Positions 2,109 to 62,608 of a DNA stretch of 64,000 bases are shown piece after piece. Below the pieces are notes generated by a model, which was not told where the DNA came from, searched no databases, and saw nothing but the letters and a program-made list of their open reading frames with translations. Source of the stretch: Alphaproteobacteria bacterium (GTDB lineage: Bacteria; Pseudomonadota; Alphaproteobacteria; JABAAW01). The stretch's first letter is position 1. Each line of letters starts with the position of its first letter. The stretch spans positions 1,347,594-1,411,593 of the forward strand of contig OZ244186.1 of the NCBI GenBank assembly GCA_965216625.1, written 5' to 3'. Made by a program: the position numbers and the translations under genes.

Positions 2109-2176
2109 GTAAATTCCTCTGTAGCAAGGCAAGCACTTAAGGCAAACACTTAAGAAAAATCCTTAAGCAAGACACC

Positions 2177-3613
2177 ATGAGCGACATCAAGAACGACACG
2201 AACGACAGCAGCGACAGCACGGACGAGACGACACGACAAGTCGATCCGCCGACCCTTCTGCCTGAAGACGCGCCGAAAGACTTGGCGAAAGTCGTGGCTA
2301 CGAAGGGGGAGCGGCTTGTGCTTGCGCGCGCCTATCGTCCGAGGCGATTCGAGGATTTGATCGGACAAGAGCAGGCACGCAGAATTGTCGAGAACGCTTT
2401 ACGCAGCGATCGGTTGCATCACGCGATTCTGCTGTCGGGACCGCGTGGCACGGGCAAGACGACGATGGCGCGCCTGATCGCGCGCGCGGTGAATTGCGTT
2501 GGCAGGGGGGGTGGGGTTGATCCTTGCGGGGTGTGTTCGGCTTGCGAGGCGATGGCGAGGGGGGAGGTGATCGATGTGGTCGAGATCGACGCTGCGTCGC
2601 ACACGGGGGTTGATGGGGTGCGTGAGATTGTCGATGGGGCGGGCTATCGTCCTGTGATGATGTCGTGTCGCGTTTATATTATTGACGAGGTTCACATGTT
2701 GTCGCGCGCTGCTTTCAACGCGTTGCTGAAGACTTTGGAGGAGCCTCCGCCGCACTTGCGGTTTTTGTTTGCGACGACGGAGGTTGAGAAGGTTCCTCTG
2801 ACTGTATTGTCGCGTTGTTTGCGGTTAGAGTTGAAGCGATTAGACAGCGAGACTTTGGCAAAGCACTATACTTTTGTGAGCGAGCAGGAGGGGTGGCAGA
2901 TCGAGCGTGAGGCGGCGTTGGCGATTGCGCGTGCGGCGGAGGGATCTGTGCGCGATGGGTTATCGTTGTTGGATTGCGCGATGGTAGAGAGCGAGGGGAA
3001 GAGCATTGTGTTGGAGCGGGTTCGAGAGATGTTGTTTCTTTCGGATGGGCATGCTTTGTATGATTTGTTGGGGTCGATTGTGGATGGAGATTTATCGGTA
3101 GCGTTGGGGCATTTGGATACTTTGATGTTGAAGGGTGCTCAGGCGGAGCGATTGTTGCGCGAGATGATGGAGCGGTTGCATCGTTTATCGAGGATGAAGG
3201 TTGCGGATGGTAGCAGGGGGGTTGCGAATGCGGAGACTGATTCGTCTGTGGATATGGATGCTTTGATATTGGAGCCTAGCGATCGGGAGCGTGGGGGGAA
3301 GTTAGCGGAGGGGTTATCTTTGGCGTCGTTGTCGAGGTTGTGGCAGATTGCTTTACGGGGTTATGAGGAGTTGCGATTGGCGCCGCATCCTCGCTCGGCG
3401 TTGGATATGGTTGTTGTGCGGTTGGTGGGGGCGGCGGGCATGCCTTTACCGCAGGAGATTTTGGCGAGGTTGGCGCGGGGAGAAGAAGGAGCGCGGGGAG
3501 CTAACGAAGAGAAAAAAGAAGAAGAAAAGAAGGAAGAAAAGCAGGGTGGTGGATATGAGGAAAAGTTGCGGGAGACTTTTCCGGGGGCGACCATTGAGGA
3601 GCGTTTTGAATAA
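2177..3613 (+). CDS. dnaX: DNA polymerase III subunit gamma/tau; short, roughly gamma-length form with a charged low-complexity tail
   Basis: Walker A GPRGTGKTT, then CGVCSACEAM and VYIIDEVHML. It is 478 aa and ends in EEKKEEEKKEEKQGGG. Confidence 0.9.
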   Translation: MSDIKNDTNDSSDSTDETTRQVDPPTLLPEDAPKDLAKVVATKGERLVLARAYRPRRFEDLIGQEQARRIVENALRSDRLHHAILLSGPRGTGKTTMARLIARAVNCVGRGGGVDPCGVCSACEAMARGEVIDVVEIDAASHTGVDGVREIVDGAGYRPVMMSCRVYIIDEVHMLSRAAFNALLKTLEEPPPHLRFLFATTEVEKVPLTVLSRCLRLELKRLDSETLAKHYTFVSEQEGWQIEREAALAIARAAEGSVRDGLSLLDCAMVESEGKSIVLERVREMLFLSDGHALYDLLGSIVDGDLSVALGHLDTLMLKGAQAERLLREMMERLHRLSRMKVADGSRGVANAETDSSVDMDALILEPSDRERGGKLAEGLSLASLSRLWQIALRGYEELRLAPHPRSALDMVVVRLVGAAGMPLPQEILARLARGEEGARGANEEKKEEEKKEEKQGGGYEEKLRETFPGATIEERFE

Positions 3614-3765
3614 GAGGCTACGCATATCGCGCTACGCGCGAAATGCGTAGAAGGCGCTTACGCGCCCCGCTGACGCGGGGTCTTTTGCGGGGGGACTGCG
3701 TCCCCCCACACCCCCCATGCGCAAAACTCGCTGCGCCTACGGCTCGCTCGTCTTGCGTTTCCATC
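3614..3765. repeat. Mosaic palindromic intergenic repeat, copy 1 (REP/RIME-like)
   Basis: It contains three modules that recur elsewhere: ctacgcat...atgcgtag, ccccgctgacgcgggg and ggggggactgcgtcccccc/catgcgcaaaac. Copies lie at about 21620, 30510-31000, 31940-32500, 46575-47100 and 49655-50235. Confidence 0.8.
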
Positions 3766-3859
3766 GATACTCAAGTCCCGTTTTTGTAGCAAGGGGCAGT
3801 CCCGTACCCCCCTGCTTCCCTAAATTCACACAAAACAACCCGCAAATCAACCTCTTTAT

Positions 3860-4342
3860 TCACACCGCAGTCATGCCCTCCCCCAACTCCGCAACCCCAT
3901 GCACAACAATAATCACATGCGTCAACCCCCCCTCATCACTAGTGCTCATCTCCAAACAAGCAACACAACCCAATCCCCCCGCACGAGCCAAAATAATCCC
4001 CCGCGCACCCCCGCTCAATCGAACACAAGGCTTCCCACTCCTAAAACGAACGCTCTCAATATCACGCCAATAAACCGCCGCATTGCCAACCCCAACACCC
4101 AGCCGCCTAATCCCCGTCCCTAACGCCTTCCCAATACACTCCTTCGCAGCAAAACAACTCGCTAAATAACTAACCCCACGACACCCCATACCATCTCCAA
4201 TACCACCCCCCATGCCCCGACGACGCGCCTCCGCAACCTCGCCCTCCGCAAAAACACGCGATAAAAAACGACCGCCATAACGCTCAACTAACCGAGCAAT
4301 ACGAGCATGATCACACAAATCCGTGCCAATCCCCAAAATCAC
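3860..4342 (-). CDS. acpS: Holo-[acyl-carrier-protein] synthase
   Basis: The N-terminus MILGIGTDLCDHARIARL and the later FAAKECIGKALGTG match the AcpS 4'-phosphopantetheinyl transferase pattern. Confidence 0.75.
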   Translation of the reverse strand: MILGIGTDLCDHARIARLVERYGGRFLSRVFAEGEVAEARRRGMGGGIGDGMGCRGVSYLASCFAAKECIGKALGTGIRRLGVGVGNAAVYWRDIESVRFRSGKPCVRLSGGARGIILARAGGLGCVACLEMSTSDEGGLTHVIIVVHGVAELGEGMTAV

Positions 4343-5100
4343 AACTCAACTCCCTCTCTACTTCCCTCTCCGATTCCCTCTCTTGCCTCGCGCATCAACC
4401 CCCTCATCTTTGCGACAACCCCGCCCAAAGAATCGAACAACGCCTGACACACAAGAAAATAACCGATGTTCAACTCCTCGATCTGCTCGATCCGCGCCAC
4501 CGCCACAACATTGTCAAAGTCCAAGCCATGCCCCGCATGGCAGGCCAACCCCACCCCCTCCGCAATCCTTGCCGCCTCGCGCAACCTCTCCAGCTGCCCC
4601 GCGTCGTCGTCAGGACGCAACGCATAACTGCCCGTATGCAACTCAACCGCCTTCGCACCCGTCTGCCGCGCCGCTTTGATCTGATCCCCATCAGGCTCGA
4701 CAAACAACGAAACCTCAATCCCTACCGCACCCACCCTCTCGACAAAAGAACGCAACCCCTGCCCGCTACCCCCAACAACATCCAATCCCCCCTCCGTCGT
4801 CTGCTCCTCTCGCCGCTCCGGCACGAAACACACGGCAGCAGGACGAAGCCGCTCGGCAATCACCACCATCTCCTCGCACGCCGCCATCTCCAAATTCAAC
4901 CGCACCCCCGCCGCAAGCAACGCCTCGACATCGCCGTCTCGAATATGTCGCCGATCCTCGCGCAGATGAACCGTGATGCTGTCCGCTCCATGCGCACACA
5001 CAACCCCCGCCGCCGCAACAATATCAGGATGATCGCCGAAACGCGCGTTGCGTAAAGTCGCAACATGATCAATGTTAACCCCCAAACGAAGAGGACGCAT
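4339..5100 (-). CDS. pdxJ: Pyridoxine 5'-phosphate synthase
   Basis: LGVNIDHVATLRNARFGDHPD, HLREDRRHI and ELHTGSYA are PdxJ hallmarks. Confidence 0.9.
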   Translation of the reverse strand: MRPLRLGVNIDHVATLRNARFGDHPDIVAAAGVVCAHGADSITVHLREDRRHIRDGDVEALLAAGVRLNLEMAACEEMVVIAERLRPAAVCFVPERREEQTTEGGLDVVGGSGQGLRSFVERVGAVGIEVSLFVEPDGDQIKAARQTGAKAVELHTGSYALRPDDDAGQLERLREAARIAEGVGLACHAGHGLDFDNVVAVARIEQIEELNIGYFLVCQALFDSLGGVVAKMRGLMREAREGIGEGSREGVEL

Positions 5101-5145
5101 TAAAAGCCCCCCCCAACAACCGCAAAAATAACCGCAAAAATAACC

Positions 5146-5652
5146 TCAGCTGCTCTCCTCGTCCGCAACCTCGACATCGCCAGCCTCGCCAGCAGCCTCG
5201 CCGCCAGCAGCAACAGCCTCGACATCGCCAGCAGCCTCGCCGCCAGCCTCGTCAGTAGCCTCTGTCGCCTCGGCCGCCTCTGCTCCGAAGATAGCCTCCG
5301 CATGGATTTCAGGCAGAACCTCGGTGGAATGTCCCTCGAAAGAAACTACCCCTTCCGCAGCTAAACCCGCGCTTACCCCCTCCTCGCCCTCTTCGGCTGC
5401 CGCCTCGATCGGAGAGAATCGCCGATGGTTTCTCACGATCGAATCTTCCAAAGCATCGATATCCAAATTGCCCTGCATGATCTCCCGCAAGGCAATCACA
5501 GCGTTTTTCTCATGCTTGATCACACGATCACGCTCCACCGTAGGCTCGACACCGCTCGCCAACTCGCGCCCGCGCTGTGCGCCGCACATCACCAGCCGAA
5601 AACGATTCGCTATTAAATCAACACTGTCTTCTATCGATACACGCGCCATCAC
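5146..5652 (-). CDS. rpoZ: DNA-directed RNA polymerase subunit omega with a long acidic C-terminal tail
   Basis: MARVSIEDSVDLIANRFRLVMCGAQRGREL matches the RpoZ N-terminal consensus. The last ~60 residues are an Ala/Glu/Gly acidic repeat. Confidence 0.8.
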   Translation of the reverse strand: MMARVSIEDSVDLIANRFRLVMCGAQRGRELASGVEPTVERDRVIKHEKNAVIALREIMQGNLDIDALEDSIVRNHRRFSPIEAAAEEGEEGVSAGLAAEGVVSFEGHSTEVLPEIHAEAIFGAEAAEATEATDEAGGEAAGDVEAVAAGGEAAGEAGDVEVADEESS

Positions 5653-5662
5653 AACACCTCAC

Positions 5663-7249
5663 TCACGAAGTTTTAGTTTTAAAAGGGATACCAATGTAAA
5701 GGTCGCGCTTGCCTTGCAAGTCGGAAACCCTCAACAACACAACTTTACGCCCCGCCTTCTTCGCCTTCGCCAAGACACGTCCCGCCTCCTCGACAGAGGC
5801 AACCTTGACACCATTGATCTCGCGAATCACATTACCGCGCTGCAAACCCTTCTCGGCAGCCTCGATGCCCGCCTTCACAACAACGAGCCCCTCGACCGAG
5901 CGCGGAACCTTGTTGCGCGAGCGCACCAAAGCGGTCAAGGCAACAACCTCGACCTCGATCAAAGACAAGGATGCCGTCTTAACCTGCTTATCCGCAACAA
6001 CGCCGTTGCGAGAACCTTCGCTCTTTTTGCTCCCCCCCTTACTTCCTCCGCGCGTGCTGGCAAGCCGCTGCTCGCTCTGACGCGCCACCTTCAGCGACAA
6101 AACAAGCCGCTTGCCGTCGCGCAAAACCTCGACGGGAACTGTCTTGCCGATCGGCGTTTGGGCTACCATCCACGGCAGGCGATCGTCGCGCGTCACTTTT
6201 TTGCGATTGTAAGAAACGATCACGTCGCCGCTTTGTAAGCCTGCGCGCGCTGCGGGACTTTTAGGAGCAATGCCTGAAACGATAACTCCCGCTGGCTTAC
6301 GAGACCCCTTCCATCCCAAGCCTGCTGCGATATCTTCTGTGACGGGCTGAAAGGCTATTCCCATCCACGCGCGTTGCGCTTCGCCGTGCTGTCCGAGTTG
6401 CTCTACGATCGTGCGCGCTACTCGCGAGGGAATGGCGAATCCGATTCCGATCGATCCTCCGCTGGGCGAGACGATCGCCGTGTTGATGCCGATCACGCGC
6501 CCGGAGAGGTCAAACAGGGGCCCTCCTGAGTTGCCGCGATTGATCGGCGCGTCCGTCTGAATAAAGTCGTCGTAGGGACCTGCGCGAATATCGCGTCCGC
6601 GTGCGGAGACGATTCCTGCGGTCACGCTACCGCCAAAGCCGAGCGGGTTTCCGATCGCCATGACCCAATCTCCTACTCGCGTCCTATCCGAATCGCCCCA
6701 CGACACGGCGGGCAGGTCTTTGTGGTGCTTGACGCGCAACAGCGCTAGGTCGGTTTGAACGTCCTTGCCGACCACTTCTGCCGCCATTTTTGTTCCGTCT
6801 TGTAGCACGACAACGATGCTCTCTGCCTTGTCGATCACATGGTTGTTTGTGACGATCAGCCCTTTGGCGTCGATCACGAAGCCCGACCCTTGCGAGCGAG
6901 GACGCCTGCGTTGTTGCGGGGTGCCTTGTCCTTTTTGTCCTTGTTGCTCGCGGAATTGTCGAAAGAGTTCTTCTAGTTGCGAGCCAGGCGGTGCGCGAAA
7001 CTCGAACTGCAAACCGCTACGCCGCTTGCTTTCGCTGACGGCGTGGCGCGCCTGAATATTGACGACGGACGGAGAGAGTTTCTCGGCGAGGTCGGCGAAG
7101 GAGCTCGGACGCGCGCGCGCATCCGCTGTTGTGACAACGCCGCACGAAAGCAGGAGCAAGGAAAAAATTGCAACCGCAGGCACATTTGCCGACAGCACAC
7201 GCGAGAGGATAGACATACGAGACGAGGAAGAGACGAGGAGTCGAAACAA
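5663..7249 (-). CDS. htrA: Periplasmic serine endoprotease DegP/HtrA (Do family) with PDZ domains
   Basis: Signal peptide present. Catalytic motifs are TNNHV, DLALL and GNSGGPL, followed by PDZ-like segments. Confidence 0.9.
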   Translation of the reverse strand: MFRLLVSSSSRMSILSRVLSANVPAVAIFSLLLLSCGVVTTADARARPSSFADLAEKLSPSVVNIQARHAVSESKRRSGLQFEFRAPPGSQLEELFRQFREQQGQKGQGTPQQRRRPRSQGSGFVIDAKGLIVTNNHVIDKAESIVVVLQDGTKMAAEVVGKDVQTDLALLRVKHHKDLPAVSWGDSDRTRVGDWVMAIGNPLGFGGSVTAGIVSARGRDIRAGPYDDFIQTDAPINRGNSGGPLFDLSGRVIGINTAIVSPSGGSIGIGFAIPSRVARTIVEQLGQHGEAQRAWMGIAFQPVTEDIAAGLGWKGSRKPAGVIVSGIAPKSPAARAGLQSGDVIVSYNRKKVTRDDRLPWMVAQTPIGKTVPVEVLRDGKRLVLSLKVARQSEQRLASTRGGSKGGSKKSEGSRNGVVADKQVKTASLSLIEVEVVALTALVRSRNKVPRSVEGLVVVKAGIEAAEKGLQRGNVIREINGVKVASVEEAGRVLAKAKKAGRKVVLLRVSDLQGKRDLYIGIPFKTKTS

Positions 7250-7433: not shown

Positions 7434-9011
7434 ATGGCACAAGAAACGGCAGAAGTTTCTACGGATGTTTCTTCGGAGCGTCGTCGTGGTGGCGGTCGAG
7501 AGGGTCGTCGTGCGCTCCGTGCGCAAGCGGCGGTTGATCGGCGTGACACGGCTGCGGCGTATATCAAGCGTGGCATGCCTGTCTACAACTACTTCAGCGA
7601 GGAGCAGATCGACCGCATTTGCGACAACGGCGCGAAGATTCTGAAGGACATCGGCTTGGAGTTTCGTGAGGATGAGGAATCGCTCGCCTTGTGGAGGCAA
7701 GCGGGAGCTAAGGTGGAGGGTGAGCGCGTTCGCTGCGACGAATCCACGCTGTTGGATATCGTCAAGAGCGTGCCTTCTCAGTTCACGCTGCATGCGCGCA
7801 ATCCGAAACGCTCGGTACAGATCGGCGGAGATGCGATGGTGTTTTTGCCTACTTATGGACCTCCGTTTGTGCGCTCGCTGAAGGAGGGACGACGCTATGC
7901 GACGATCGAGGACTTTCGCAATTTTTCAAAGTTGACCTACTTATCGCCGGCGCTGCACCACAACGGCGGCACGCTGTGCGAGCCTACCGATCTTCCCGTC
8001 AACAAGCGGCACTTGGAGATGCTCTACAGCCACGTGCGCTATTCGGACAAGGGCTTTCTCGGCTCTGTGACGGCGCCTGAGCGAGCGCAAGATTCCGTCG
8101 ACTTTGCCAAAATCATCTTCGGCGAAGAGTTCACCGACAACAACGCTGTTATCAGCGCGATCATCAATGTCAACTCGCCGCTCGTCTTCGACAACACGAT
8201 GACGGGCGCACTGAAGGTCTATGCGCGCGCGAACCAGCCTTGCATCGTCTCGCCTTTCATCTTGTCGGGAGCCATGGGACCCGTCACCGTGGCAGGCACG
8301 CTTTCGCAAATCTACGCCGAGAGTCTGCTGGGCGCAGCTCTCGTACAGCTCTACCGCAAGGGAGCGCCGCACATCATGGGAACATTTGCGACCTCGCTCT
8401 CGATGCTCTCAGGCGCGCCTTGCTTTGGGACTGCCGAATCCAGCATGGTGCAGCTCGGCTGTGGGCAGATTGCGCGCAGGTTGGGCTTTCCGTTGCGCTC
8501 TAGCGGTGCTTTGTGTGGCTCTAAAATCATGGACGCGCAGGCAGCTTACGAATCGGCGATCTCTATGCAAACGAATCTGTTTGCGGGCAACAATGTCGTC
8601 ATGCACACGGCGGGATGGCTGGAGGGAGGCTTAGTGATGGACTACGAAAAATTCGTGTTAGACGCAGACCAAGCCATGGCTTTCGTCAGGTTGGCTACTC
8701 CTCCTGATACGGACGAGAACCAACTGGCTTTCGATGCGTTGCAAGAGGTCGGACCTGGCGGACACTACTTGGGCTGCGCGCACACGCAAGCCAACTTCGA
8801 GAGCGCCTTCCACAACTCGCCCTTCGTTGACAACGAGTCCTTCGAGCGATGGAAAGCCGAGGGAGAAAAGGACATGGTTGCGCGCGCTGCGGACAAGGTC
8901 GAGCGTATGTTGAACGAGTACGAGGCGCCGCCGATCGACGAGGCACTCGATGAAAACCTGCTCGAATTCATCAAGCGGCGTAAGGAGTCTATGCCTGATT
9001 CATGGATTTAG
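7434..9011 (+). CDS. MttB-family (trimethylamine/glycine betaine) methyltransferase, non-pyrrolysine type
   Basis: 525 aa with MttB superfamily features (COG5598), including GLEFREDEE. An RBS ggagg sits upstream of the ATG at 7434. Confidence 0.8.
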   Translation: MAQETAEVSTDVSSERRRGGGREGRRALRAQAAVDRRDTAAAYIKRGMPVYNYFSEEQIDRICDNGAKILKDIGLEFREDEESLALWRQAGAKVEGERVRCDESTLLDIVKSVPSQFTLHARNPKRSVQIGGDAMVFLPTYGPPFVRSLKEGRRYATIEDFRNFSKLTYLSPALHHNGGTLCEPTDLPVNKRHLEMLYSHVRYSDKGFLGSVTAPERAQDSVDFAKIIFGEEFTDNNAVISAIINVNSPLVFDNTMTGALKVYARANQPCIVSPFILSGAMGPVTVAGTLSQIYAESLLGAALVQLYRKGAPHIMGTFATSLSMLSGAPCFGTAESSMVQLGCGQIARRLGFPLRSSGALCGSKIMDAQAAYESAISMQTNLFAGNNVVMHTAGWLEGGLVMDYEKFVLDADQAMAFVRLATPPDTDENQLAFDALQEVGPGGHYLGCAHTQANFESAFHNSPFVDNESFERWKAEGEKDMVARAADKVERMLNEYEAPPIDEALDENLLEFIKRRKESMPDSWI

Positions 9012-9026
9012 TGGGTATAGTCGGGC

Positions 9027-9512
9027 TTGCTTGCTTGTTTTGTCTTTCTGCGCGCGGAGGGTTGTAGCCAAAAAGACGAGATGGCGGATATTTCTTCTCA
9101 GAAGGATTTATGGCGACGTTTGTGTGCTTCGTTGCGCGCGTGGGTTATCGATCATTGGCGCGGAGATTTGTCGCTTATCGAGTCTTTTTGGATCAACTGT
9201 TTTTTCGTCAACTTGGGAGCGGGCATTCTGTTGCGTCGCCTTGCGCTTTCGCCTGCGGGGGTGATGGTGTTCGGCGTGTTATCGGTGGGAGTTTCTGTGT
9301 GGCAGTTGGTGGGCTTGTGGCGATCGGCGCACAAGAACAGCAGGAAGCAGCCGATTTGGTCGGCGATTGTGAAGGGAGTGTGCGTGATGAATGTCGTCGT
9401 CTTTGGGATGGTGGTGCTGGCGGCGTTGTTCGGAGGATTCGGAGAGGGAGACATCAACTTGCCCGTAGATTTACCCGCGCAGAGCATACCGAGCAGATTT
9501 CTCAAAACTTGA
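9027..9512 (+). CDS. Hypothetical small inner-membrane protein
   Basis: ORF with 3-4 predicted hydrophobic helices (GAGILLRRLALSPAGVMVFGVLSVGVSVWQLVGLW, CVMNVVVFGMVVLAALFGG). The true start is possibly the M at about 9080. No recognisable family. Confidence 0.3.
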   Translation: MLACFVFLRAEGCSQKDEMADISSQKDLWRRLCASLRAWVIDHWRGDLSLIESFWINCFFVNLGAGILLRRLALSPAGVMVFGVLSVGVSVWQLVGLWRSAHKNSRKQPIWSAIVKGVCVMNVVVFGMVVLAALFGGFGEGDINLPVDLPAQSIPSRFLKT

Positions 9513-9545
9513 CAAAAATTTGACCAAGATTTGACGAAAATTTGA
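9483..9545 (+). promoter_or_regulatory. Four tandem ~12-nt repeats (atttgacNaaNa) upstream of the OMP gene
   Basis: The sequence atttgaccaaga atttgacgaaaa atttgacgaaga atttgcgaaaac is visible directly. It contains repeated TTGAC, which is -35-like. Confidence 0.4.
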
Positions 9546-9756
9546 CGAAGATTTGCGAAAACTTTTTTTAACACCGAGCCTTGACGAGCAGAGAAGGAGG
9601 TGCTAGAAAGTCCTCTTGTTGCGCTTAAGGGCTGAAGTGAGGGGGTTTGGAGCGGGGGGGCTAGAGCAAACAAATAGGGGGGAAACATGGGGGGACAATC
9701 GTTTTTTACAAACAACAACAACACACTAACAACATCACACTAAGGAGTTTCCTCTG

Positions 9757-10539
9757 ATGAGAAAAGGAATTATTGTTTCCCTCGCCGCGCTGGCGATGGG
9801 TTTGACGGGCTTGTATGCGTCTCCTGCGAAGGGGCTGCAGTTTGGCTTTAATGCGGGTTACACTTCGGTGGGCCTTAATTTGCATGGCATGGGCGGAGAG
9901 TTTCTGTTCGGCTTTCAGGGCAAGGACGAGCATCGTCCGCAAGGCTCGGTGATACGCATCGGCTTGGCGGGTGCTTCAGGAGAGGGCGAATCCGACCTCA
10001 CTGCAGCAACATGGGACGGAGTGAGCTATGACGTTTACACAGCAGCAGCTCAGGCTCAAGTGACTGCTGCCATCACAGCGTTGGCGACATTGGGGGCGAC
10101 AGGTGCTGCTCTAGCAGCAGGCACTGCGGCAATACAAGCTGCAGCAGCAGCTCCAGGGGAAGCTTATGGTATTGCCGATAAAGCTTCGGCATCCGCTGCG
10201 AAGGGCAAGGGTACGGCCTTCCTCGTTTCGGCTGCTTACGAGTATGTCTTGCCGCAAGGTGCGCCGGGGCTTGGCTTCATCGTCGGTGGCGAGCTGTATG
10301 TTTCGCAAGGCGGCTTTGCAAGTTCTAATCCTGCCTATCCTAGCGTCTCGACCGATGGAGGCATCGGAGGGGGCGGTGTTGTTGGCATCAGCTACTACAC
10401 GAAGAATGGCTTCAACCTCTCGATCAAGACGGGAGTTGGCATCGTCAGTCCTGGAGAAGTGACTTTGCTTGGAGTGACAGTCGTGCCTGAGTCGGTGCTT
10501 TATGTCAGCCCGACTTTCTCGATTGGCTTCATTCACTAG
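9757..10539 (+). CDS. Outer-membrane beta-barrel protein (OmpA-like/porin-like), Ala-rich
   Basis: Signal peptide MRKGIIVSLAALAMGLTGLYASPA. The body alternates hydrophobic residues and is Gly/Tyr-rich. The C-terminus is TFSIGFIH. Confidence 0.5.
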   Translation: MRKGIIVSLAALAMGLTGLYASPAKGLQFGFNAGYTSVGLNLHGMGGEFLFGFQGKDEHRPQGSVIRIGLAGASGEGESDLTAATWDGVSYDVYTAAAQAQVTAAITALATLGATGAALAAGTAAIQAAAAAPGEAYGIADKASASAAKGKGTAFLVSAAYEYVLPQGAPGLGFIVGGELYVSQGGFASSNPAYPSVSTDGGIGGGGVVGISYYTKNGFNLSIKTGVGIVSPGEVTLLGVTVVPESVLYVSPTFSIGFIH

Positions 10540-10556
10540 TTCTAATCAACAAAAAT

Positions 10557-10594
10557 GAGGACGCGGGCTTTCGTTGCTCGCGTCCTCTTTTTTT
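10557..10594 (+). terminator. Rho-independent terminator after the OMP gene
   Basis: Stem gaggacgcg...cgcgtcctc followed by a T-run of 7. Confidence 0.7.
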
Positions 10595-10635
10595 GCTTGC
10601 GGATTGGTGCAGAGAAGGGTTAGGATTGGTGTGTT

Positions 10636-10926
10636 ATGCGTTCTTTGATCGAGTTAGTGTTGTTGCTGTTGCGTTTGTACGGATGGTGTCTGATTGCGGT
10701 TGCGATCATGAGTTGGATGTTGGCGTTTGGGGTTATCAACGCTTACTCGCCTGTGGTGCGCTCGATTTTGGAGATTTTGTATCGATTGACCGAGCCGTTA
10801 TTGCGTCCGATAAGGCGAGTGATTCCGTCGGTTGCGGGGGTTGATTTCTCGCCGGTGATTGCTCTGCTGGGGTTGTGGTTTGTCGGGCAGTTGATCAGGG
10901 AGTATGCGTTTAAGCTGTTGCTTTGA
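10636..10926 (+). CDS. yggT: YggT-family membrane protein
   Basis: 96 aa with two TM helices. The YggT/Ycf19-like segment is RLTEPLLRPIRRVIP...DFSPVIALL. Confidence 0.75.
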   Translation: MRSLIELVLLLLRLYGWCLIAVAIMSWMLAFGVINAYSPVVRSILEILYRLTEPLLRPIRRVIPSVAGVDFSPVIALLGLWFVGQLIREYAFKLLL

Positions 10927-10960
10927 GCCATAAGAGAAGAGAGAGAGGGAGTAGGGGCGA

Positions 10961-12322
10961 GTGACTGAAAAGAAGCAGAGGATTGATCCTATTCGGCGGG
11001 TACGCGGGATGCAGGATTTTCTACCTGAGCGCGCGGCGGGGATGCGGAGGATTGCGGGGATTGCGGAGGATGTTGCGAGGCTGTATGGGTTTGAGCGGAT
11101 AGAGATTCCTATATTAGAGAGGGCGAGTTTGTATCGGAGGTCGTTGGGATTGGGGAGCGATGTTGTGATGAAGGAGATGTATGCGTTTCAGGATAAGAAA
11201 GATAAAAATGACAATAGCGAGGAGTTGTGTTTGCGTCCTGAGGGGACGGCGGGGGTGATGCGGATGTTGATCGAGGAGGGATTGACGCAGACGCTACCGC
11301 AGAGATGGTTTTACGAGGGGGCGATGTTTCGCAGGGAAAGACCTCAAAAAGGTAGGTTTCGGCAATTTCATCAGTGCGGAATAGAGTTGCTACATAAGTC
11401 CGCGCGTTATGTCTACAATATAGACAAAGAATTAGAGATTGTTGCTTGCGCTTGGTATTTTCTTAGGGAGTTAAGGTTAACAGATACGATTGAGCTTAAA
11501 GTTAATTGGCTTGGGAACGCAGAGGAGAGGATGCTTTATGGTGAAACTTTAAAAAAGCATTTTCAACGATATGCGAAGGATGAATCTCTTTCGGATGAGA
11601 GTATAGAGCGATTGAAACGCAATCCTTTACGCATCCTTGATTCTAAAGACCCTCTCGATCAGGAGGCAATAAGTAAAGTTCCTCCATTGGAATTAAATAA
11701 AGTTTCACAAGATAAATTTAATGATGTTCAAGAATCTCTTAAAGTTTTAGGTATTTCATTTTCTTACGACTCAAGGCTTGTGCGTGGGTTAGATTATTAC
11801 AACGGGTTTGTTTTTGAATTCGTAGAAAAAGACACGGAACGAGCGCAGGCGACGATATTGGCGGGAGGACAATACGATGGGTTATGCGAGGAGTTAGGAG
11901 GAAAAAATCCTGTTGCTGCTATCGGATGGGCTGCGGGGTTGGAGCGTTTATTGGAACTGCAGGAAAACAAAAAAAATCAAAGCGTTAGCTCTCATATAAC
12001 AAAAATGTGTGTATTAGGGGATGATACTTTTAGAGGAGTTGAGTTTGGAGGCGAACTTGTTGATTTAATTGAGGACATAAGAAATAAATTTTATAAAAAC
12101 AATGATCTTTCTAGTGTTGCTTTTTTTACAGCTTCTTCTTACGAAGAGGCAGAAAAAACAAAAGCAAATTGGATTGTTATTATTTGTAGATTAGGGTTGG
12201 AAAGTTATTATTTCCGTATAATAAACGCATCTAATGGGAAAGAACTTGATGCAAATATTGAGCCGCATGAGTTTGATCAATGGTTGGAATCTAGTTTTGG
12301 TGATGAGGACGAAGACTTATAA
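10961..12322 (+). CDS. hisS: Histidine--tRNA ligase; the 5' half is G+T-rich and the 3' half is A+T-rich
   Basis: Class II aaRS motifs are present (RGMQDFLPE, LRPEGTA, FRRERPQKGRFRQFHQ, GGQYDGL). Composition shifts abruptly at about 11400. Confidence 0.9.
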   Translation: MTEKKQRIDPIRRVRGMQDFLPERAAGMRRIAGIAEDVARLYGFERIEIPILERASLYRRSLGLGSDVVMKEMYAFQDKKDKNDNSEELCLRPEGTAGVMRMLIEEGLTQTLPQRWFYEGAMFRRERPQKGRFRQFHQCGIELLHKSARYVYNIDKELEIVACAWYFLRELRLTDTIELKVNWLGNAEERMLYGETLKKHFQRYAKDESLSDESIERLKRNPLRILDSKDPLDQEAISKVPPLELNKVSQDKFNDVQESLKVLGISFSYDSRLVRGLDYYNGFVFEFVEKDTERAQATILAGGQYDGLCEELGGKNPVAAIGWAAGLERLLELQENKKNQSVSSHITKMCVLGDDTFRGVEFGGELVDLIEDIRNKFYKNNDLSSVAFFTASSYEEAEKTKANWIVIICRLGLESYYFRIINASNGKELDANIEPHEFDQWLESSFGDEDEDL

Positions 12323-12325
12323 CCC

Positions 12326-12533
12326 CCTGATAGAAAAAACAATACTATCGGCATGGTGGGCGTTCGTATGATGCATGTAGAGGCGACATGGCACTTGGCA
12401 GATTAAAACATGCGCATAGGCACGACGATAGGCAGTATGGTCTGCCAAGTTGGGGATAAATTCCCCTGCCATGCCGAATCTACATGCATCATCTAAACAT
12501 CTCCCGCGTCGATAGAATTTTCTTTCTATCAGC
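12326..12533. mobile_element. MITE-like ~208-bp palindromic element with imperfect terminal inverted repeats
   Basis: The left arm is cctgatagaaaaaacaatactatcggcatgg...gatgatgcatgtagaggcgacatggcacttggcagat. The right arm is its near reverse complement (atctgccaagttggggataaattcccctgccatgcc...ttctttctatcag). It contains the recurrent ggggataaattcccc hairpin and has no ORF. Confidence 0.55.
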
Positions 12534-49643: not shown

Positions 49644-49654
49644 GATTGTTGAAA

Positions 49655-58106: not shown

Positions 58107-59170
58107 CGCAGCTCTTTACCGTCTCGAACGAAACTATGTCTGAAAGCTTCGCCGAAAGCTTCTCCGCACAACAATGCCGACACGCCAGCATCGCCATCGG
58201 AAACTTCGACGGGCTGCACCGAGGACACCTCGCCCTGTTGCGCACCATGCGTGACAAAAACCTGCCTCGCCCGTGGGTCTTCCTCACCTTCGAACCCCAT
58301 CCGCGACAATTCTTCGCGCCCGATGCTCCTCCCTTTCGCCTCTCCCACAGCGCGCAAAAGCGACGCTGGCTTGCCGAGCACAAGGTCGATGCCTTGCTGG
58401 TCGCCACCTTCGAGCAAAGCCTCGCCGCGCTCGCACCCCACACCTTCGTCGAGCGATTTCTCGTGCAAGGCTTGCAGGCGCGCGACATCGTCGTCGGAGA
58501 AAACTTCGTCTTCGGACACAAACGACAAGGCACGCTGGCAACGCTACGCGACTTCGAAATGCGCGACGCCTTTCGTGTGCACGCCGTTCCTCTTTTGAGC
58601 TTGGGCAAAACCCTCTACGCTTCCTCGCGCGCACGAGCGGCGATACGCGAGGCACAACTCGACGAGGCGCGTAGCGTCTTGGGACGCAGTTTTGAAATCG
58701 AGGGCGTCGTGCAAAAAGGAAAAGGACTGGGGAGTCGGCTCGGCTTTCCCACCGCCAACATCGACCCCGTCGACTACTGTCAGCCTCGGTTTGGCGTCTA
58801 CGATGTTTCGGTCCTCCGCGGGCAGGAGCGCTGGGATGCCGTTGCCAGCTTCGGCAAGCGTCCGACGCTGGGAGAGGGACTTTCGCCTTTGTTGGAGTTG
58901 CATTTCTTCGACCGCTCCGAGACGCTCTACGGCGAGACGCTACGCGTCAGCTTCGAGCGGTTTCAGCGTCCCGAACAGCACTACGAATCGCTTGCCGCCT
59001 TGCAAGCGCAAATCGCCAAGGATGTCGCCTCGTCGCGAGCCTACTTCGCCAAACGAATCCTGAAGCGCAACCCCTCCTCCGTTTCCTCTGCTCCCTCCGC
59101 GCCTGAGCGAGAATCGCTGCAGAGGCGAGGAGACGAAAAGCAACAGATCGCCTCGCAACCCTTGCGATGA
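58103..59170 (+). CDS. ribF: Bifunctional riboflavin kinase / FMN adenylyltransferase
   Basis: IAIGNFDGLHRGH, then the riboflavin kinase region GKGLGSRLGFPTANI. Its start overlaps the glmM stop (ATGA). Confidence 0.85.
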   Translation: MTQLFTVSNETMSESFAESFSAQQCRHASIAIGNFDGLHRGHLALLRTMRDKNLPRPWVFLTFEPHPRQFFAPDAPPFRLSHSAQKRRWLAEHKVDALLVATFEQSLAALAPHTFVERFLVQGLQARDIVVGENFVFGHKRQGTLATLRDFEMRDAFRVHAVPLLSLGKTLYASSRARAAIREAQLDEARSVLGRSFEIEGVVQKGKGLGSRLGFPTANIDPVDYCQPRFGVYDVSVLRGQERWDAVASFGKRPTLGEGLSPLLELHFFDRSETLYGETLRVSFERFQRPEQHYESLAALQAQIAKDVASSRAYFAKRILKRNPSSVSSAPSAPERESLQRRGDEKQQIASQPLR

Positions 59171-59985
59171 CAAAAACAGTTGCAGAAGTAACGCTTGCCG
59201 TTCTCGGCGCAGGAGGACGCATGGGACAAGCGGTGCTCGACGAGGGAGAGCGCGAGCCGCGCGTGTCGACGATGCTCGCGGTCTTCTCGCAAGACGCGGA
59301 GGTCTCGCAAGCTGCGCTACGCTGGAGCAAGGCTCGTGTGGCGAAGGATGCGGAAGCTGCGTTGGACGAGGTTGTCTCGTGTGGAGGAGCGGCTATCGAT
59401 TTCACCGCTCCTGAAGCTTCGGCAAGGTACGCGCGAATGGCGGCGAAGGTGGGATGTCCTTTTGTGTGCGGGACAACGGGCTTGGCGGAGCAAGAGATGC
59501 TGGCGTTGCGCGAGGCGAGCACGGATTGTGCGCTTGTCTATGCGGCAAACTTTTCTTTGGGGGTTGCCTTGCTTGCAACCTTGGTGGAGCGAGCGGCGGC
59601 ATTTTTGTCTGGGGAAGAGTTCGACGCGGAGATTTTCGAGATGCACCATCGGGAGAAAAAGGACGCTCCCTCTGGGACGGCATTGCGTTTGGGAAAGGCG
59701 GTCGAGCGGGGGAGGGGGCAGCAGAAGATCGGGGAGGCAAAAGGCGACAGGGGGGGGGTACGCGAGCGCGGCGAGGTAGGTTATGGCGTTTTGCGGGGAG
59801 GGGGTGTTATAGGCGAGCATCGCGTTTTCTTTGCTGGCAGGGACGAGCGCATCACGTTGGGACACGAGTCTTTTTCGCGCGCGCTTTTTGCAACGGGAGC
59901 TGTGAAGGCAGCCTTATGGGCGTGCGAACAAAAACCAGGTTTTTATTCCGTTGACGATATATTGAACCTTGACACCAAATGTTAA
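59167..59985 (+). CDS. dapB: 4-hydroxy-tetrahydrodipicolinate reductase
   Basis: LAVLGAGGRMGQAV and EIFEMHHREKKDAPSGTA (the DapB HHxxKxDxPSGTA motif). Confidence 0.85.
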   Translation: MTKTVAEVTLAVLGAGGRMGQAVLDEGEREPRVSTMLAVFSQDAEVSQAALRWSKARVAKDAEAALDEVVSCGGAAIDFTAPEASARYARMAAKVGCPFVCGTTGLAEQEMLALREASTDCALVYAANFSLGVALLATLVERAAAFLSGEEFDAEIFEMHHREKKDAPSGTALRLGKAVERGRGQQKIGEAKGDRGGVRERGEVGYGVLRGGGVIGEHRVFFAGRDERITLGHESFSRALFATGAVKAALWACEQKPGFYSVDDILNLDTKC

Positions 59986-60052
59986 CATTGATTCAAGATG
60001 ATAGAGAATATTTGTTGACCTACCCTACAAAAAATTAACAACACCATCCATG

Positions 60053-60547
60053 CTAAGTTTTTTCTTTGTAGACAACCTTTCCATTGCCCAAAGCCCATTG
60101 TTCCGAAAATCCTACATGCGAAATAACATTCTTGCTGTTATTAAGCTGGCGTTCTGTTTCTTCTACAGATTTTGAAACGTCCAGCTCGTAAATAGTTTTT
60201 ATTTTTGTTTGATTATCTGCATAAAAAACAATGAAGAAAATCTTGTGATTACGCGTAAGGCGACGCAGAGATTTGGCACGTCTTTCTGGCGGCGATTTAA
60301 ACATTCTGTCCAATTGTCCGGAGCCACCCTCCTTACAAGACAAATACTCGTACAGCAAAGACGAGTTATTCGGGTCGCAAGCATCCGCATGCCTCTTGGA
60401 AGTTAAAACTCTGTGTCCCAAACAATCGGCTATAATAATTTCTTTGACGAGACCAGGCTGAAACAGATTCGCGACACCAAGGTTTTTTGCAAGATGAGAG
60501 GCTTGCAAAATTAAATCAATGATTTTACTGTAAGGATTAAAAACCAT
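60053..60547 (-). CDS. Putative Type II restriction endonuclease (called from context; weak PD-(D/E)xK-like segment)
   Basis: 164 aa. A+T-rich. It overlaps the stop of the upstream methyltransferase by ~11 nt. The segment ADACD...EYLSCK may be a nuclease core. No family was recognised. Confidence 0.35.
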   Translation of the reverse strand: MVFNPYSKIIDLILQASHLAKNLGVANLFQPGLVKEIIIADCLGHRVLTSKRHADACDPNNSSLLYEYLSCKEGGSGQLDRMFKSPPERRAKSLRRLTRNHKIFFIVFYADNQTKIKTIYELDVSKSVEETERQLNNSKNVISHVGFSEQWALGNGKVVYKEKT

Positions 60548-61355
60548 GAGCCAAATCTAACGAAGGATGTTCGTCCAAAGAACAATCCATCTGTTCCAAT
60601 CGTCTTGTGGCAGCTGCTGCAAAAGATGCGTTGATCTCAAACGCAATGAAACGACGAGAATGACGCTTGCAAACAACGGGGCAAGTGCCTACTCCTGAAA
60701 AAGGATCAAGAACTAAATCTCCTTCGCAAGAACTTGCCAACACCAGTCTCTCTATCAATCGTTCAGGTTTCTGAACAGTGTTGAGTGCTCGGCGATCAAC
60801 GAGCTCTTTCGAACGATATGTCAGCGCTTTTATATCGCCCCATACATCTCCAGGATTTTTTCCCTTGTTGTTAAATTTCGTCTTGCCGTAACGACCGCTC
60901 ACAACAGAAGGCACTCTTTCACACCTAAAACGATGATCCAATTCAACCAACTGCGGAACCCTGACGCTATCCAAATTAAAACACCGTGCTTTTTCTCCTT
61001 TCACAAAATAAAAAATTGTATCGTAATTGTTTGTGTAGTTAATTCTTCCCTGAGAAAGTCTGCTTGGCAAATACCAAACAATTCTTGTTCTAAGATGTAG
61101 ATATTTCCTGTAATCAACAAAGTCAACAGAATCGTGCTTGCCGAAAAGATACAAAACTCCTCCCTGTTTTAATTTTTTTGAAAAAATTTCTATAAGATGG
61201 AAATTAAATTCCTGCACCGAAGAAATTTTATCCCAAGCATTGTTGGTCACGCCGTAAGGACCATCGCAAACGATCAAGTCGATCGAATTATCTTCGATCT
61301 CCTTGACAAGCTCAAAGGTGTTGCCACAAACAATTTTGTTTTCAAATTCTTGCAC
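60537..61355 (-). CDS. Beta-class DNA methyltransferase (N6-adenine or N4-cytosine; CcrM/HinfI-like architecture)
   Basis: Motif IV-like IDLIVCDGPYG lies near the N-terminus and motif I LVLDPFSGVGT near the C-terminus (beta-class order). The coding sequence is A+T-rich. Confidence 0.7.
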   Translation of the reverse strand: MQEFENKIVCGNTFELVKEIEDNSIDLIVCDGPYGVTNNAWDKISSVQEFNFHLIEIFSKKLKQGGVLYLFGKHDSVDFVDYRKYLHLRTRIVWYLPSRLSQGRINYTNNYDTIFYFVKGEKARCFNLDSVRVPQLVELDHRFRCERVPSVVSGRYGKTKFNNKGKNPGDVWGDIKALTYRSKELVDRRALNTVQKPERLIERLVLASSCEGDLVLDPFSGVGTCPVVCKRHSRRFIAFEINASFAAAATRRLEQMDCSLDEHPSLDLAHGF

Positions 61356-61420
61356 AACAACACTCCTCTTGTTTTTTGTACGCTCAAATCAAGACAAAGC
61401 AGAAGCAAAGAAGTTAAACG

Positions 61421-61491
61421 CTGGGGTGGTAGGATTCGAACCCACGATCACGAGACCAAAACCCGTTGCCTTACCACTTGGCTACACCCCA
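61421..61491 (-). tRNA. tRNA-Gln (anticodon TTG)
   Basis: Reverse complement TGGGGTGTAGCCAAGTGGTAAGGCAACGGGTTTTGGTCTCGTGATCGTGGGTTCGAATCCTACCACCCCAG. Confidence 0.85.
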
Positions 61492-61507
61492 ACAATACCT
61501 CCACACT

Positions 61508-62608
61508 CTACACATTCTCCCCCGCCTTGTCGACTCCCTCTCCTGCCTCGCTTTTACGGAAGCGCGTCGCAATCACCCCCCGCCAGCCGCGCGCGCGCAA
61601 GCACTCCGCCACATCCTCCTCACAACCCAGCTCCGTCAAGCCGAAACAGGCAGAGCCGCTCCCCGTCATCCGAGCGCAAAAAACTTCCTCGCAAGAACGC
61701 AACGCCGACAGCCGCTCGACGATAGAGCCATCCAACGCACAAGCCGCCGCAAGTAAGTCGTTCCCCCCCGCCTCCAACAACGCCGTCAACTTTGAGAACT
61801 TTGATGCTGACGAAAAAGTCTTTGAAAAAGTCTCAGCCTCAGTCGCGCTGTATGCTCTCCCCTCCGCTCGATCACGAGCATAACGCTCATAGACCGCTTT
61901 CGTGGAAAGTTCCGCTCCACAAAGAAGAACCACGCCGCAGACAGGCAACGCAGCTTGCTCTAATACTCGCTCGCCATAACCCGAGACGAAAACACTATTG
62001 CTCTTCGCGCGCAAAAAAAACAACGCGACATCCGAGCCAACCGCACGAGCAACAGAAAGCCACTCGGCAGCGGAAAGAGATACGCTATTTTTATTAAATC
62101 CCCGCATAGAATTCTTGGAGCTAATTTTTTCACGCGCATAACGCAAGAAAGACGCGGCATCGCTCGACCCTCCGCCCAAGCCCGCGCCCGCAGGGATCGC
62201 CTTTTGAACAACGATATTCCAAGCGCACTCGAAAGATTCAACGCCGTCTTTAACACTACCCTCGACACTCTTCGATTGCACGGTTGCCGCAAGCGCACGC
62301 GCCGCGCGCGCTAGCGAGTGATCTTCGCACACAGGAAAAGTCTCCTCCGCAGAGTGAGCCTTAAAATGAGTCTTGCAATGAGTCTTGGAGTTTGCCTTGT
62401 AAAATTCTACGGCAAGCCCTCCGCCGTCTTCTCTGTCATGCACCTCCAGTTGATCGTGCAGCTCCAAGAAGACGATGTGACTTTCCAACGCGTGCAGCCC
62501 GCAATCGTTTCTACCGCCGACGCGCAACGAGAGGTTCACCTTGGCAGGCGCAAACAAAAGAGGCGACGCAGACTCCAAAGGCATGACTAATGGCATGGCT
62601 AAGGACAC
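61508..62608 (-). CDS. ispE: 4-(cytidine 5'-diphospho)-2-C-methyl-D-erythritol kinase with internal insertions
   Basis: FAPAKVNLSLRV and the GHMP kinase motif PAGAGLGGGSSDAA. Confidence 0.8.
   Translation of the reverse strand: MSLAMPLVMPLESASPLLFAPAKVNLSLRVGGRNDCGLHALESHIVFLELHDQLEVHDREDGGGLAVEFYKANSKTHCKTHFKAHSAEETFPVCEDHSLARAARALAATVQSKSVEGSVKDGVESFECAWNIVVQKAIPAGAGLGGGSSDAASFLRYAREKISSKNSMRGFNKNSVSLSAAEWLSVARAVGSDVALFFLRAKSNSVFVSGYGERVLEQAALPVCGVVLLCGAELSTKAVYERYARDRAEGRAYSATEAETFSKTFSSASKFSKLTALLEAGGNDLLAAACALDGSIVERLSALRSCEEVFCARMTGSGSACFGLTELGCEEDVAECLRARGWRGVIATRFRKSEAGEGVDKAGENV

Follow-up and report, generated by a model that had tools for sequence, protein, structure and literature searches.

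Strand-Polar Compositional Blocks Paired around Palindromic Intergenic Repeats in an Alphaproteobacterial Genome

Results

Composition of the Region

The region analyzed here is a 64,000-nt stretch of an alphaproteobacterial genome (GenBank assembly GCA_965216625.1, contig OZ244186.1, positions 1,347,594–1,411,593), called the window below. Its protein genes were identified via NCBIfam and Pfam, and its tRNA, 5S and 23S rRNA, and signal recognition particle RNA genes were located. Some of these genes lie in blocks of strand-polar synonymous composition, and the strong blocks are paired around intergenic spacers with palindromic multi-hairpin repeats. The nearest named relatives of the PrfA protein are from uncultured Alphaproteobacteria (Rhodospirillales, Kiloniellales), at about 50% identity. 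A PrfA scan of GTDB species representatives revealed only relatives at 55% identity or less, and no close one.

GC skew and AT skew were calculated in 300-nt and 1-kb windows, with shuffled sequence as the control. In 300-nt windows, GC skew reaches +0.55 (3001–3300) and −0.64 (3901–4200). Its absolute value exceeds 0.25 in 97 windows, while 1.9 are expected from shuffles, whose maximum is 0.39. At the 1-kb scale, it drops from +0.45 at 2501–3500 to −0.49 at 4001–5000. AT skew is opposite in sign to GC skew, and the plus strand is thus G+T-rich or A+C-rich in each block. Three-state segmentation, which was used for block calling, gives coordinates close to those of the initial annotation (Table 1). 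These counts bear out the mosaic of strand-polar synonymous composition described in the initial annotation. The blocks are 0.5–3.5 kb long with an amplitude up to 0.64, balanced sequence lies between them, and GC skew changes its sign at least 12 times in 64 kb. Neither replication-linked skew nor inversions explain such a pattern, as stated in the initial annotation.

The open reading frames (ORFs) are intact, and the bias is concentrated at third codon positions. These are about 90% G/T or A/C in some genes, close to a two-letter alphabet. The counts on the coding strand are A8 C9 G69 T75 for acpS, A7–8 C12 G79 T70 for folK, A8 C17 G73 T87 for dcd, A162 C171 G20 T39 (A0.41 C0.44 G0.05 T0.10) for prfA, and A123 C254 G63 T45 for gltX. 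A and C are depleted together on the same strand. The coding strands of dnaX and hisS (plus strand) and of acpS, pdxJ, folK, and dcd (minus strand) are G/T-rich. Those of prfA, prmC, gltX, rpmJ, dctQ, dctM, the 5′ end of the thiolase gene, and orf384 are A/C-rich. Both coding-strand polarities are therefore present, and polarity is independent of gene orientation, as originally proposed.

The strong blocks are paired: a G/T block on the left and an A/C block on the right, with a short spacer in between. This polarity is invariant, and long balanced stretches separate successive pairs. All polarity flips fall in intergenic spacers. The switches described earlier inside htrA, rsmA, and hisS are really distal fade-outs into balanced or A+T-rich sequence, and the thiolase sequence at 21200–21520, taken as a 3′ end, is actually the 5′ end of a minus-strand gene. 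Two A+T-rich stretches have other identities. The stretch at 60000–61400 is a low-GC DNA-methylase cassette adjoining tRNA-Gln, and that at 31000–31700 is a Redoxin gene inserted between two inverted repeat arrays. The pairing, the palindromic centre, and the decay with distance, all described below, were not part of the initial annotation.

Palindromic Repeats between Paired Blocks

Based on the reading of spacers and a repeat search of the window, every strong switch sits on copies of an intergenic repeat, at six centres in total (Table 1). The repeat family is multi-copy and intergenic, and is composed of GC-rich hairpin modules in both orientations: GGGGATAAATTCCCC; CCCCGCTGACGCGGGG followed by a T-run; GGGGGGACTGCGTCCCCCC; and CTACGCAT...ATGCGTAG. 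One module is a canonical terminator hairpin with a T-run. Some copies are 97% identical to one another, and none in the window lacks flanking blocks. Hairpins were folded in silico as single-stranded DNA and scored against shuffles (z). The palindrome of centre 5 (46590–47075) has a predicted free energy of −213.7 kcal/mol (z = −25.6). No Rfam family matched the repeat spacers at the gathering score, and no transposase gene is seen within the window. Scanning JGI metagenomes with the conserved 18-mer CCGCTGACGCGGGGTCTT returned 33 single matches, which represent only the generic terminator hairpin and not the repeat family.

The strength of each switch was expressed as D, the keto3 of the 800 nt to the left minus that of the 800 nt to the right, where keto3 is the G+T fraction at third codon positions read on the plus strand. 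D was calculated at every junction between annotated features (n = 46). The seven repeat-bearing spacers (six centres, with two arrays at centre 4) occupy the top seven ranks, with D of 0.27–0.63. At junctions without a repeat D is 0.10 or less, and the chance of such a ranking is 1.9e-8. Long spacers without repeats show no polarity switch. The same is true of all three convergent junctions without a repeat (15395/15403, 33962/33972, and 52342/52339).

At the six strong centres the bias is bilateral, extends over kilobases, is strongest beside the repeat, and fades over 0.5–3.5 kb. In the nearest 500 nt, keto3 is 0.57–0.88 on the left and 0.10–0.31 on the right, and it is back to about 0.5 by 1.5–3 kb. 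Centres 3, 5, and 6, which are specific to the clade of the window, have mostly shorter arms than the shared, older centres 1, 2, and 4. This fits proximal sites saturating first.

Table 1. Repeat centres, flanking arms, and other features of the window. Arm polarity is read on the plus strand; labels such as D1 or I3 are repeat matches, and D followed by a value is the keto3 difference across the spacer.
Feature	Position	Strand	Content	Repeat matches and measures
Centre 1, dnaX/acpS spacer	3601..3760		half-copy, GC-rich hairpin modules	D1, D13, I3, I5, I6; fold z = −4.0; D = +0.63
Centre 1 G/T arm	2400..3600	+	3′ two-thirds of dnaX	GC skew +0.33 to +0.55; keto3 0.81–0.82 within 1 kb
Centre 1 A/C arm	3761..6200	+	acpS, pdxJ, rpoZ, 3′ htrA, all minus-strand genes	GC skew −0.64 to −0.14 and keto3 0.10, 0.23, 0.24, 0.37, 0.50 outward
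Centre 2, hisS/prfA spacer	12322..12545		A+T-rich decayed palindrome of ~210 nt with GGGGATAAATTCCCC	I22, D8; z = −7.0; D = +0.44
Centre 2 G/T arm	8850..12321	+	small ORFs, yggT-like gene, hisS	GC skew +0.25 to +0.52
Centre 2 A/C arm	12546..15000	+	prfA, prmC, start of DUF4167 gene, all plus-strand	GC skew −0.47 to −0.21
Centre 3, tRNA-Val/thiolase-folK spacer	21660..21790		half-copy	D1, D16, I1 (97% to 30606–30714); D = +0.55
Centre 3 G/T arm	20400..21550	+	5′ part of minus-strand thiolase gene	strongest at 21051–21550
Centre 3 A/C arm	21791..22345	+	folK (minus strand)	abrupt end at tRNA-Thr
Centre 4, left array	30510..30995		reverse orientation; 2 × 127-nt tandem	D3, D4, D5, I4, I7–I10
Redoxin/AhpC-TSA gene between the centre 4 arrays	31002..31655	+	PF08534, PF00578	GC ~0.47; no GC skew
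Centre 4, right array	31930..32471		forward orientation	D2, D6, D8, D10, D12, I4 (101 nt, 87%)
Centre 4 G/T arm	29500..30509	+	3′ rsmA	GC skew up to +0.46 to +0.49; keto3 0.88 in nearest 500 nt
Centre 4 A/C arm	32472..35700	+	gltX (plus), then two minus-strand genes including PMT_2/ArnT-like	keto3 outward 0.19, 0.18, 0.30, 0.28, 0.26, 0.43
Centre 5, SBP/dcd spacer	46596..47070		composite, near-perfect ~470-nt palindrome	I2, I11; D = +0.54
Centre 5 G/T arm	45507..46595	+	solute-binding protein (SBP) gene	
Centre 5 A/C arm	47071..47700	+	dcd (minus strand)	ends at tRNA-Pro
Centre 6, orf384/rpmJ spacer	49719..50230		composite palindromic array, reverse and forward halves	D5, D7, D10, D20, I2, I3, I13, I14; D = +0.48
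Centre 6 G/T arm	48700..49718	+	5′ part of minus-strand orf384, moderate	keto3 0.65–0.70 within 1 kb
Centre 6 A/C arm	50231..52500	+	rpmJ, dctQ, dctM (plus)	GC skew −0.43 to −0.2; weak tail to ~55800
Seventh pair, weak and ambiguous	59100..62300		dapB G/T-rich, ispE A/C-rich on the plus strand	D only +0.10 to +0.18
G/T blocks by segmentation	2501–3500, 9001–9450, 10551–11300, 21051–21550, 29701–30650, 45501–45750, 59451–59850			
A/C blocks by segmentation	3801–6000, 12651–14400, 21801–22350, 32401–35650, 47051–47700, 50251–51050, 61451–62050			
MTTB-family gene	7434..9011			
hisS	10961..12322	+	left of centre 2	
prmC	13759..14691	+	right of centre 2	
23S rRNA gene	36898..40149	−		3252 nt (model 2925 nt)
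Insertion in 23S rRNA gene	about 38496–38951			~457 nt
Copy related to the 23S insertion	40535..41433			
rpmJ	50304..50429	+	ribosomal protein L36	
Methylase cassette	60053..61355	−	N6/N4 DNA methylase (PF01555) and 164-aa ORF without Pfam match	GC 0.36–0.43
tRNA-Gln	61420..61491			

Distribution among Relatives

The window was compared with syntenic loci of relatives at several distances. Loci L086, L090, and L093 are from a strain about 97.5% identical to the window, and L001, L087, and L091 are from a 1.63-Mb genome about 90% identical. A clade with about 75–85% nucleotide identity (about 80% amino acid identity for PrfA) is represented by L002, L083, L088 (GCA_014237925.1), and L092. The outgroup is L084, with a PrfA identity of about 60%. 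Independent assemblies in this comparison are ENA analyses ERZ25071253, ERZ25071281, ERZ25069837, and ERZ26869290, besides GCA_014237925.1.

Orthologous positions carry the blocks in all three groups, at 97%, 90%, and 80%, with nearly constant third-position composition. The third-position G+T fraction of acpS is 0.90, 0.87, and 0.92, and the third-position A+C fraction of prfA is 0.85, 0.79, and 0.82. The outgroup is much less polarized. This orthology across assemblies rules out an assembly artefact and recent foreign import. The repeat copy in the spacer of centre 1 is also present in L001 and L002, and the inverted repeat of centre 2, CCCCCTGATA...TATCAGGGGG, is found in L002, too.

At three centres (3, 5, and 6), the presence or absence of the repeat matches that of the skew across lineages, a correlative observation. 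Between the thiolase gene and folK, the window and L001 have the repeat with both arms, and L002 has neither. The third positions of folK in L002 are A20 C71 G51 T26, versus A7–8 C12 G79 T70 in the window. L088 has no folK block and no match to the window repeats anywhere. For dcd/SBP and dctQ, the window, L093, and L091 have the repeat together with its arms; L092, with the same gene order, has neither. The third-position G+T fraction of dcd on the coding strand is 0.86 in the window, 0.86 in L093, and 0.79 in L091, versus 0.46 in L092 and 0.38 in L084. That of SBP is 0.73, 0.73, and 0.66 in the window, L093, and L091, versus 0.46 in L092, which has no element. That of dctQ on the coding strand is 0.20 in the window and 0.21 in L093, versus 0.50 in L092. 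The SBP/dcd spacer of L092 is only 70 bp long with one small hairpin, and the genes there are convergent as in the window. The repeat of centre 6 has no blast match in L092. No clear target-site duplication or terminal repeats are visible in the comparison of the empty and filled sites of centre 5.

The arms of centre 4, between rsmA and gltX, are common to all lineages; the G/T arm is seen in L086, L087, and L088. The repeats there differ. The window and L086 have the composite array with the Redoxin gene, L087 has a single array, and L088 has an unrelated 2 × 190-nt hairpin repeat.

Substitution Spectrum

The long-term spectrum was obtained by comparing the window with unskewed orthologues at synonymous third positions, read on the strand that turned G/T-rich. 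C>T is seen 137 times against 13 T>C, A>G 66 times against 22 G>A, and C>G 48 times against 4 G>C. The C>T fraction by the 5′ neighbour is 0.62 for T, 0.59 for A, 0.58 for C, and 0.40 for G, and no strong preference is seen. C before A is spared from C>T, which fits TpA avoidance. First and second codon positions shift likewise; at first positions of folK, C decreases from 55 to 32 and T increases from 28 to 47. The less constrained proteins shift in amino acid composition. The G/V/F/C/W/L content of folK rises from 0.33 to 0.42, and the P/T/H/Q/N/K content of dctQ from 0.17 to 0.32.

Recent changes were counted at four-fold sites in three trios, between the window and the 97.5% strain, with the 90% genome for polarization. 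Here the strand presumed to be exposed in the model below is compared with its complement, the protected strand. C>T occurred at 19 of 439 exposed sites (0.043) and 13 of 1322 protected sites (0.010), with a background of 0.018 (p = 3e-5). For A>G the counts are 7/224 (0.031) and 2/687 (0.003), with a background of 0.018 (p = 0.001), and for G>T they are 31/1322 (0.023) and 3/439 (0.007), with a background of 0.012 (p = 0.03). The strand bias of these recent changes indicates that the process is still running. Polarized substitutions thus support the earlier view of mutational, strand-coordinated blocks in which C>T on one strand predominates. The stronger version, an origin by C-to-T alone, does not hold, as A is depleted along with C on the same strand.

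Discussion

A Proposed Local Strand-Polar Mutation Process

We consider it fairly probable from these sequence comparisons that the mosaic was left by a strand-polar mutation process acting locally around the palindromic multi-hairpin intergenic repeats. The data suggest that fragile palindromes expose single-stranded DNA and reshape neighbouring genes. Exposure of single-stranded DNA, one of the causes raised in the initial annotation, is the most economical one.

The invariant polarity matches single-stranded DNA with its 3′ end toward the repeat. A repeat cluster would repeatedly leave its flanks single-stranded, the 3′ end of the surviving strand pointing at the repeat; to the left of the repeat the plus strand would be exposed, and to its right the minus strand. 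This geometry would arise by either of two routes. A hairpin or cruciform extruded in vivo could be broken and the ends resected in the 5′–3′ direction. Alternatively, a polymerase, which moves 3′–5′ along its template, could stall at a template hairpin and leave an unfilled daughter-strand gap beyond it, whichever the fork direction. The polarity fits resection and polymerase-stalling gaps equally. On the exposed strand, deamination would turn C into U (C>T) and A into hypoxanthine (A>G), and G would be oxidized (G>T). In combination, these three changes are what damage to single-stranded DNA classically produces, and the reasoning parallels that for the asymmetry of the mitochondrial heavy strand in vertebrates. 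The probability of exposure would drop with distance, and the bias would decay over 0.5–3.5 kb. Purifying selection would remove most amino acid changes, so that synonymous sites would drift to two letters, G and T on the exposed strand; right of the repeat, the plus strand would accordingly show A and C.

The arm lengths of 0.5–3.5 kb are comparable to resection tracts and to the Okazaki or re-priming distances of bacteria. Processing by AddAB/RecBCD would start the tail at a distal Chi site. As the effect is strongest beside the repeat, RecJ-type resection or gaps may fit slightly better than AddAB/RecBCD. Origin-like divergent forks, outward strand displacement from a nick, and outward transcription with damage to the non-template strand were considered and rejected, since each predicts the opposite polarity.

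Several observations weigh against this interpretation. The inner left arm of centre 2 (the inner 1 kb, with GC of 0.32–0.41 at 11400–12300) is A+T-rich on both strands, which a one-strand model leaves unexplained. Some arms stop sharply at tRNA genes or gene starts (folK, dcd, SBP) with no fade. Four-fold divergence in arms (0.039–0.043) is barely higher than the background (0.035); with total divergence so near the background, the arms appear mainly polarized, not strongly hypermutated. The protected-strand rates of C>T and A>G below the background are part of the bias, and the model does not predict them. At centres 3, 5, and 6, the repeat and the skew appeared on a single branch, so that either may have come first. 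The different repeats at centre 4 in different lineages raise the possibility that the site itself might attract repeats. Finally, no palindromic repeat was found between dapB and ispE, the weak seventh pair.

Alternative Explanations

Transcription-associated mutagenesis could produce strand asymmetry if the non-template strands of units converging on terminator-rich spacers were deaminated, the repeats being merely bidirectional terminators. Indeed, four of the seven centres lie between convergent genes, the majority of strongly skewed genes are G/T-rich on the coding strand, one repeat module is a terminator hairpin with a T-run, and some arms end exactly at gene or tRNA boundaries. The opposite polarity of prfA, prmC, gltX, rpmJ, dctQ, dctM, the thiolase 5′ end, and orf384 is difficult to reconcile with it. 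In principle, gltX and dctQM could lie under antisense read-through from minus-strand genes located downstream. The hem operon, the would-be antisense source for prmC and prfA, is itself unskewed. Convergence is also not sufficient: the three repeat-less convergent junctions show no switch, and dcd and SBP are convergent in L092 yet unskewed without the repeat. Besides, the skew decays outward from the spacer and does not start sharply at promoters. Transcription as the cause is therefore quite unlikely.

Causation could also run in reverse or from a common source: the spacers would have been hot spots of recombination, breakage, or single-strandedness first, and palindromic mobile elements would have been inserted later. 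The varying repeat families and arrangements at centre 4, the joint origin of repeat and skew on one branch at centres 3, 5, and 6, and the repeat-less dapB/ispE pair with a methylase island beside a tRNA gene are all compatible with this order. Yet the six strong centres have no visible hot-spot feature independent of the repeats, and long repeat-less spacers show nothing. Three unrelated spacers turning into hot spots on one branch would be less economical than three insertions of one mobile family with copies that remain 97% identical. We give this order of events a small chance, though one worth keeping in mind. A similarly small chance goes to an extension of the main model, in which the repeats would be more than fragile: a DNA-processing activity encoded elsewhere in the genome would act on them in trans. 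Candidates are a transposase or RAYT-like nuclease, a structure-specific nuclease, and an enzyme that is recruited by hairpins and modifies single-stranded DNA. The arms would then be footprints of active, element-directed breakage or hypermutation that remodels the genes nearby. If so, this would be a bacterial, germ-line analogue of targeted hypermutation, with a mobile element acting as a local strand-specific mutator.

A cytosine deaminase acting on exposed DNA, be it an interbacterial toxin, a host APOBEC-like enzyme, or an endogenous one, would account for the dominance of C>T. The directional C>G (48 vs. 4) is reminiscent of processing at abasic sites after uracil removal. The lack of a strong 5′-neighbour preference (0.62, 0.59, 0.58, and 0.40, as above) argues against a sequence-specific deaminase; a deaminase was among the causes suggested earlier. 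A>G and G>T, raised on the same strand, are not caused by a cytosine deaminase, the 3′-neighbour effect fits TpA avoidance, and repeat-centred exposure of single strands would still be needed. A deaminase is thus very unlikely to be the driver.

Least credible of all is that compositionally different donors supplied the blocks by mosaic recombination or horizontal transfer, or that the blocks are an artefact of assembly or sequencing. Block boundaries are sharp at the kilobase scale, and the A+T-rich Redoxin gene and methylase cassette both look acquired. The blocks themselves, however, are orthologous and syntenic in four ENA analyses and one NCBI metagenome-assembled genome, are shared vertically among relatives, and have intact ORFs with the bias at third positions, and polarized substitutions show change in place. 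We know of no donor with two-letter codon usage of either polarity. Recombination with divergent donors, offered in the initial annotation, thus loses its ground, and assembly chimerism, raised there as well, is contradicted by the same blocks in at least five independent assemblies. Conversion of bisulfite type is excluded together with chimerism by the intact ORFs, the third-position bias, and the several assemblies. A synthetic recoded genome, conceivable from the run of essential genes, the 57% GC, and the odd wobble usage, is rejected: natural relatives at 97%, 90%, 80%, and 60% identity in independent metagenomes have the same blocks.

Relation to Known Systems

In vertebrate mitochondrial DNA and in the leading/lagging skew of bacteria, C>T and A>G accumulate on the strand that spends time single-stranded, and the gradient follows exposure. 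The window resembles these in the G/T-rich strand opposite an A/C-rich strand and in the exposure gradient. While those asymmetries are replicon-wide and organized by origins, the pattern here is local (0.5–3.5 kb), bipolar, and organized by palindromes, with a skew amplitude of 0.4–0.6, several times that of usual bacterial chromosomes. REP/BIME and RIME are intergenic mosaic palindromic elements of proteobacteria. Like them, the present repeats are multi-copy, strictly intergenic, built of modular GC-rich hairpins in both orientations, and often arranged as larger inverted pairs; the likeness is in architecture, not in a demonstrated sequence relationship to a described family. To our knowledge, no REP-like family has been reported with kilobase-scale strand-polar flanks.

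Strand-coordinated mutation clusters at resected breaks in yeast and cancer are C-coordinated on one side and G-coordinated on the other. They share with the window the mutated C on the 3′-ended strand of each side and the switch at the break. Such clusters are single events with a handful of mutations, often due to APOBEC with TC context, whereas the bias here is cumulative, has no 5′ context, and includes A>G.

For yeast, Saini et al. (2013, PMC3681665) report that mutation near inverted repeats and palindromes is raised over distances of up to 8 kb to either side, and attribute this to breakage, resection, and long single-stranded DNA. The effect was measured in reporter genes and depends on the repeat, hairpin opening, resection, distance, and Pol zeta (PMC3681665). 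Both cases have a repeat-dependent, bilateral, kilobase-scale, and distance-dependent effect on flanking genes. There it is an experimental mutation rate in a eukaryote; here it is an evolutionary footprint in a bacterium, with near-saturated synonymous sites, fixed strand polarity, and a spectrum of deamination/oxidation type. In full-text literature searches, we found neither an account of these assemblies nor any bacterium reported to have near-saturated, bipolar compositional arms of kilobase scale beside palindromic repeats. The ingredients (strand asymmetry from single-stranded exposure, fragile palindromes, and REP-like repeats) are known, and their combination as an evolutionary footprint appears to be new.

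If the proposed process is correct, mobile non-coding elements can be local mutators that alter codon usage and amino acid composition of neighbouring essential genes, and the yeast reporter effect extends to bacterial genome evolution. The repeats may even push their neighbours toward pseudogenes, as hisS and prmC are frameshifted beside centre 2 in the sister genome. Integrated over time, the arms would record the reach of single-stranded DNA from a fragile site in an unculturable bacterium, and lengths of resection or gaps and the damage spectrum of single-stranded DNA could be read from sequence alone. Such blocks would also mislead methods that assume homogeneous composition: origin prediction by GC skew, detection of horizontal transfer, expression indices based on codon usage, dN/dS, and phylogenetics.

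Other Features of the Region

The Redoxin gene, which lies between two inverted arrays of about 480 nt (30510–32471), looks like cargo carried by a composite element. The window and the 97% strain (L086) have it, and L087 and L088 do not. Its low GC content without skew would be anticipated for DNA exposed on both strands in the loop of a giant hairpin. The gene for ribosomal protein L36, rpmJ, adjoins centre 6 on the right. Its third positions are almost all A/C, and it is absent from the ORF list owing to the length cut-off.

The dapB/ispE pair flanks the low-GC methylase cassette and tRNA-Gln. The cassette probably represents a restriction-modification island that was acquired next to a tRNA gene. 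L092 and L093 carry it, while L091 has an A+T-rich remnant of about 230 bp instead. The pair is seen with the cassette (window, L092, and L093) and without it (L091). The cassette was rejected as the cause of the seventh pair, because L091 keeps a weak pair.

In L001, hisS (8345–10000) has a frameshift around residue 231, and its C-terminal third is decayed with 28–36% GC. prmC (11148–12117) is frameshifted, too, and both genes flank centre 2. This suggests either that genes beside repeat centres are prone to becoming pseudogenes, or that the assembly of L001 contains indels. L083 is a 197-kb contig of the sample that also gave L002. At its positions 1–3200, upstream of htrA, 3.2 kb of sequence with an even 31% GC and a GC skew of about −0.27 stands in place of the dnaX-acpS-pdxJ-rpoZ segment. 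The replacement contains repeated 32-codon ORFs and is like a tandem satellite.

The MTTB-family gene (trimethylamine methyltransferase-like) shows amino acid identities of 97%, 91%, and 76%, against 93%, 80%, and 55–60% for its neighbours. Such unusual conservation across the clade hints that methylamine or glycine-betaine metabolism is important to this presumed symbiont.

The 23S rRNA gene is longer than the model owing to an insertion, which is not in L087. The insertion duplicates the sequence just upstream of the 23S gene, where the related copy lies, and includes a ribosome-binding site and the start of a small signal-peptide-like ORF (MKKSLIVAVAL...). No 16S gene adjoins the 23S gene, and the rRNA operon is thus split.

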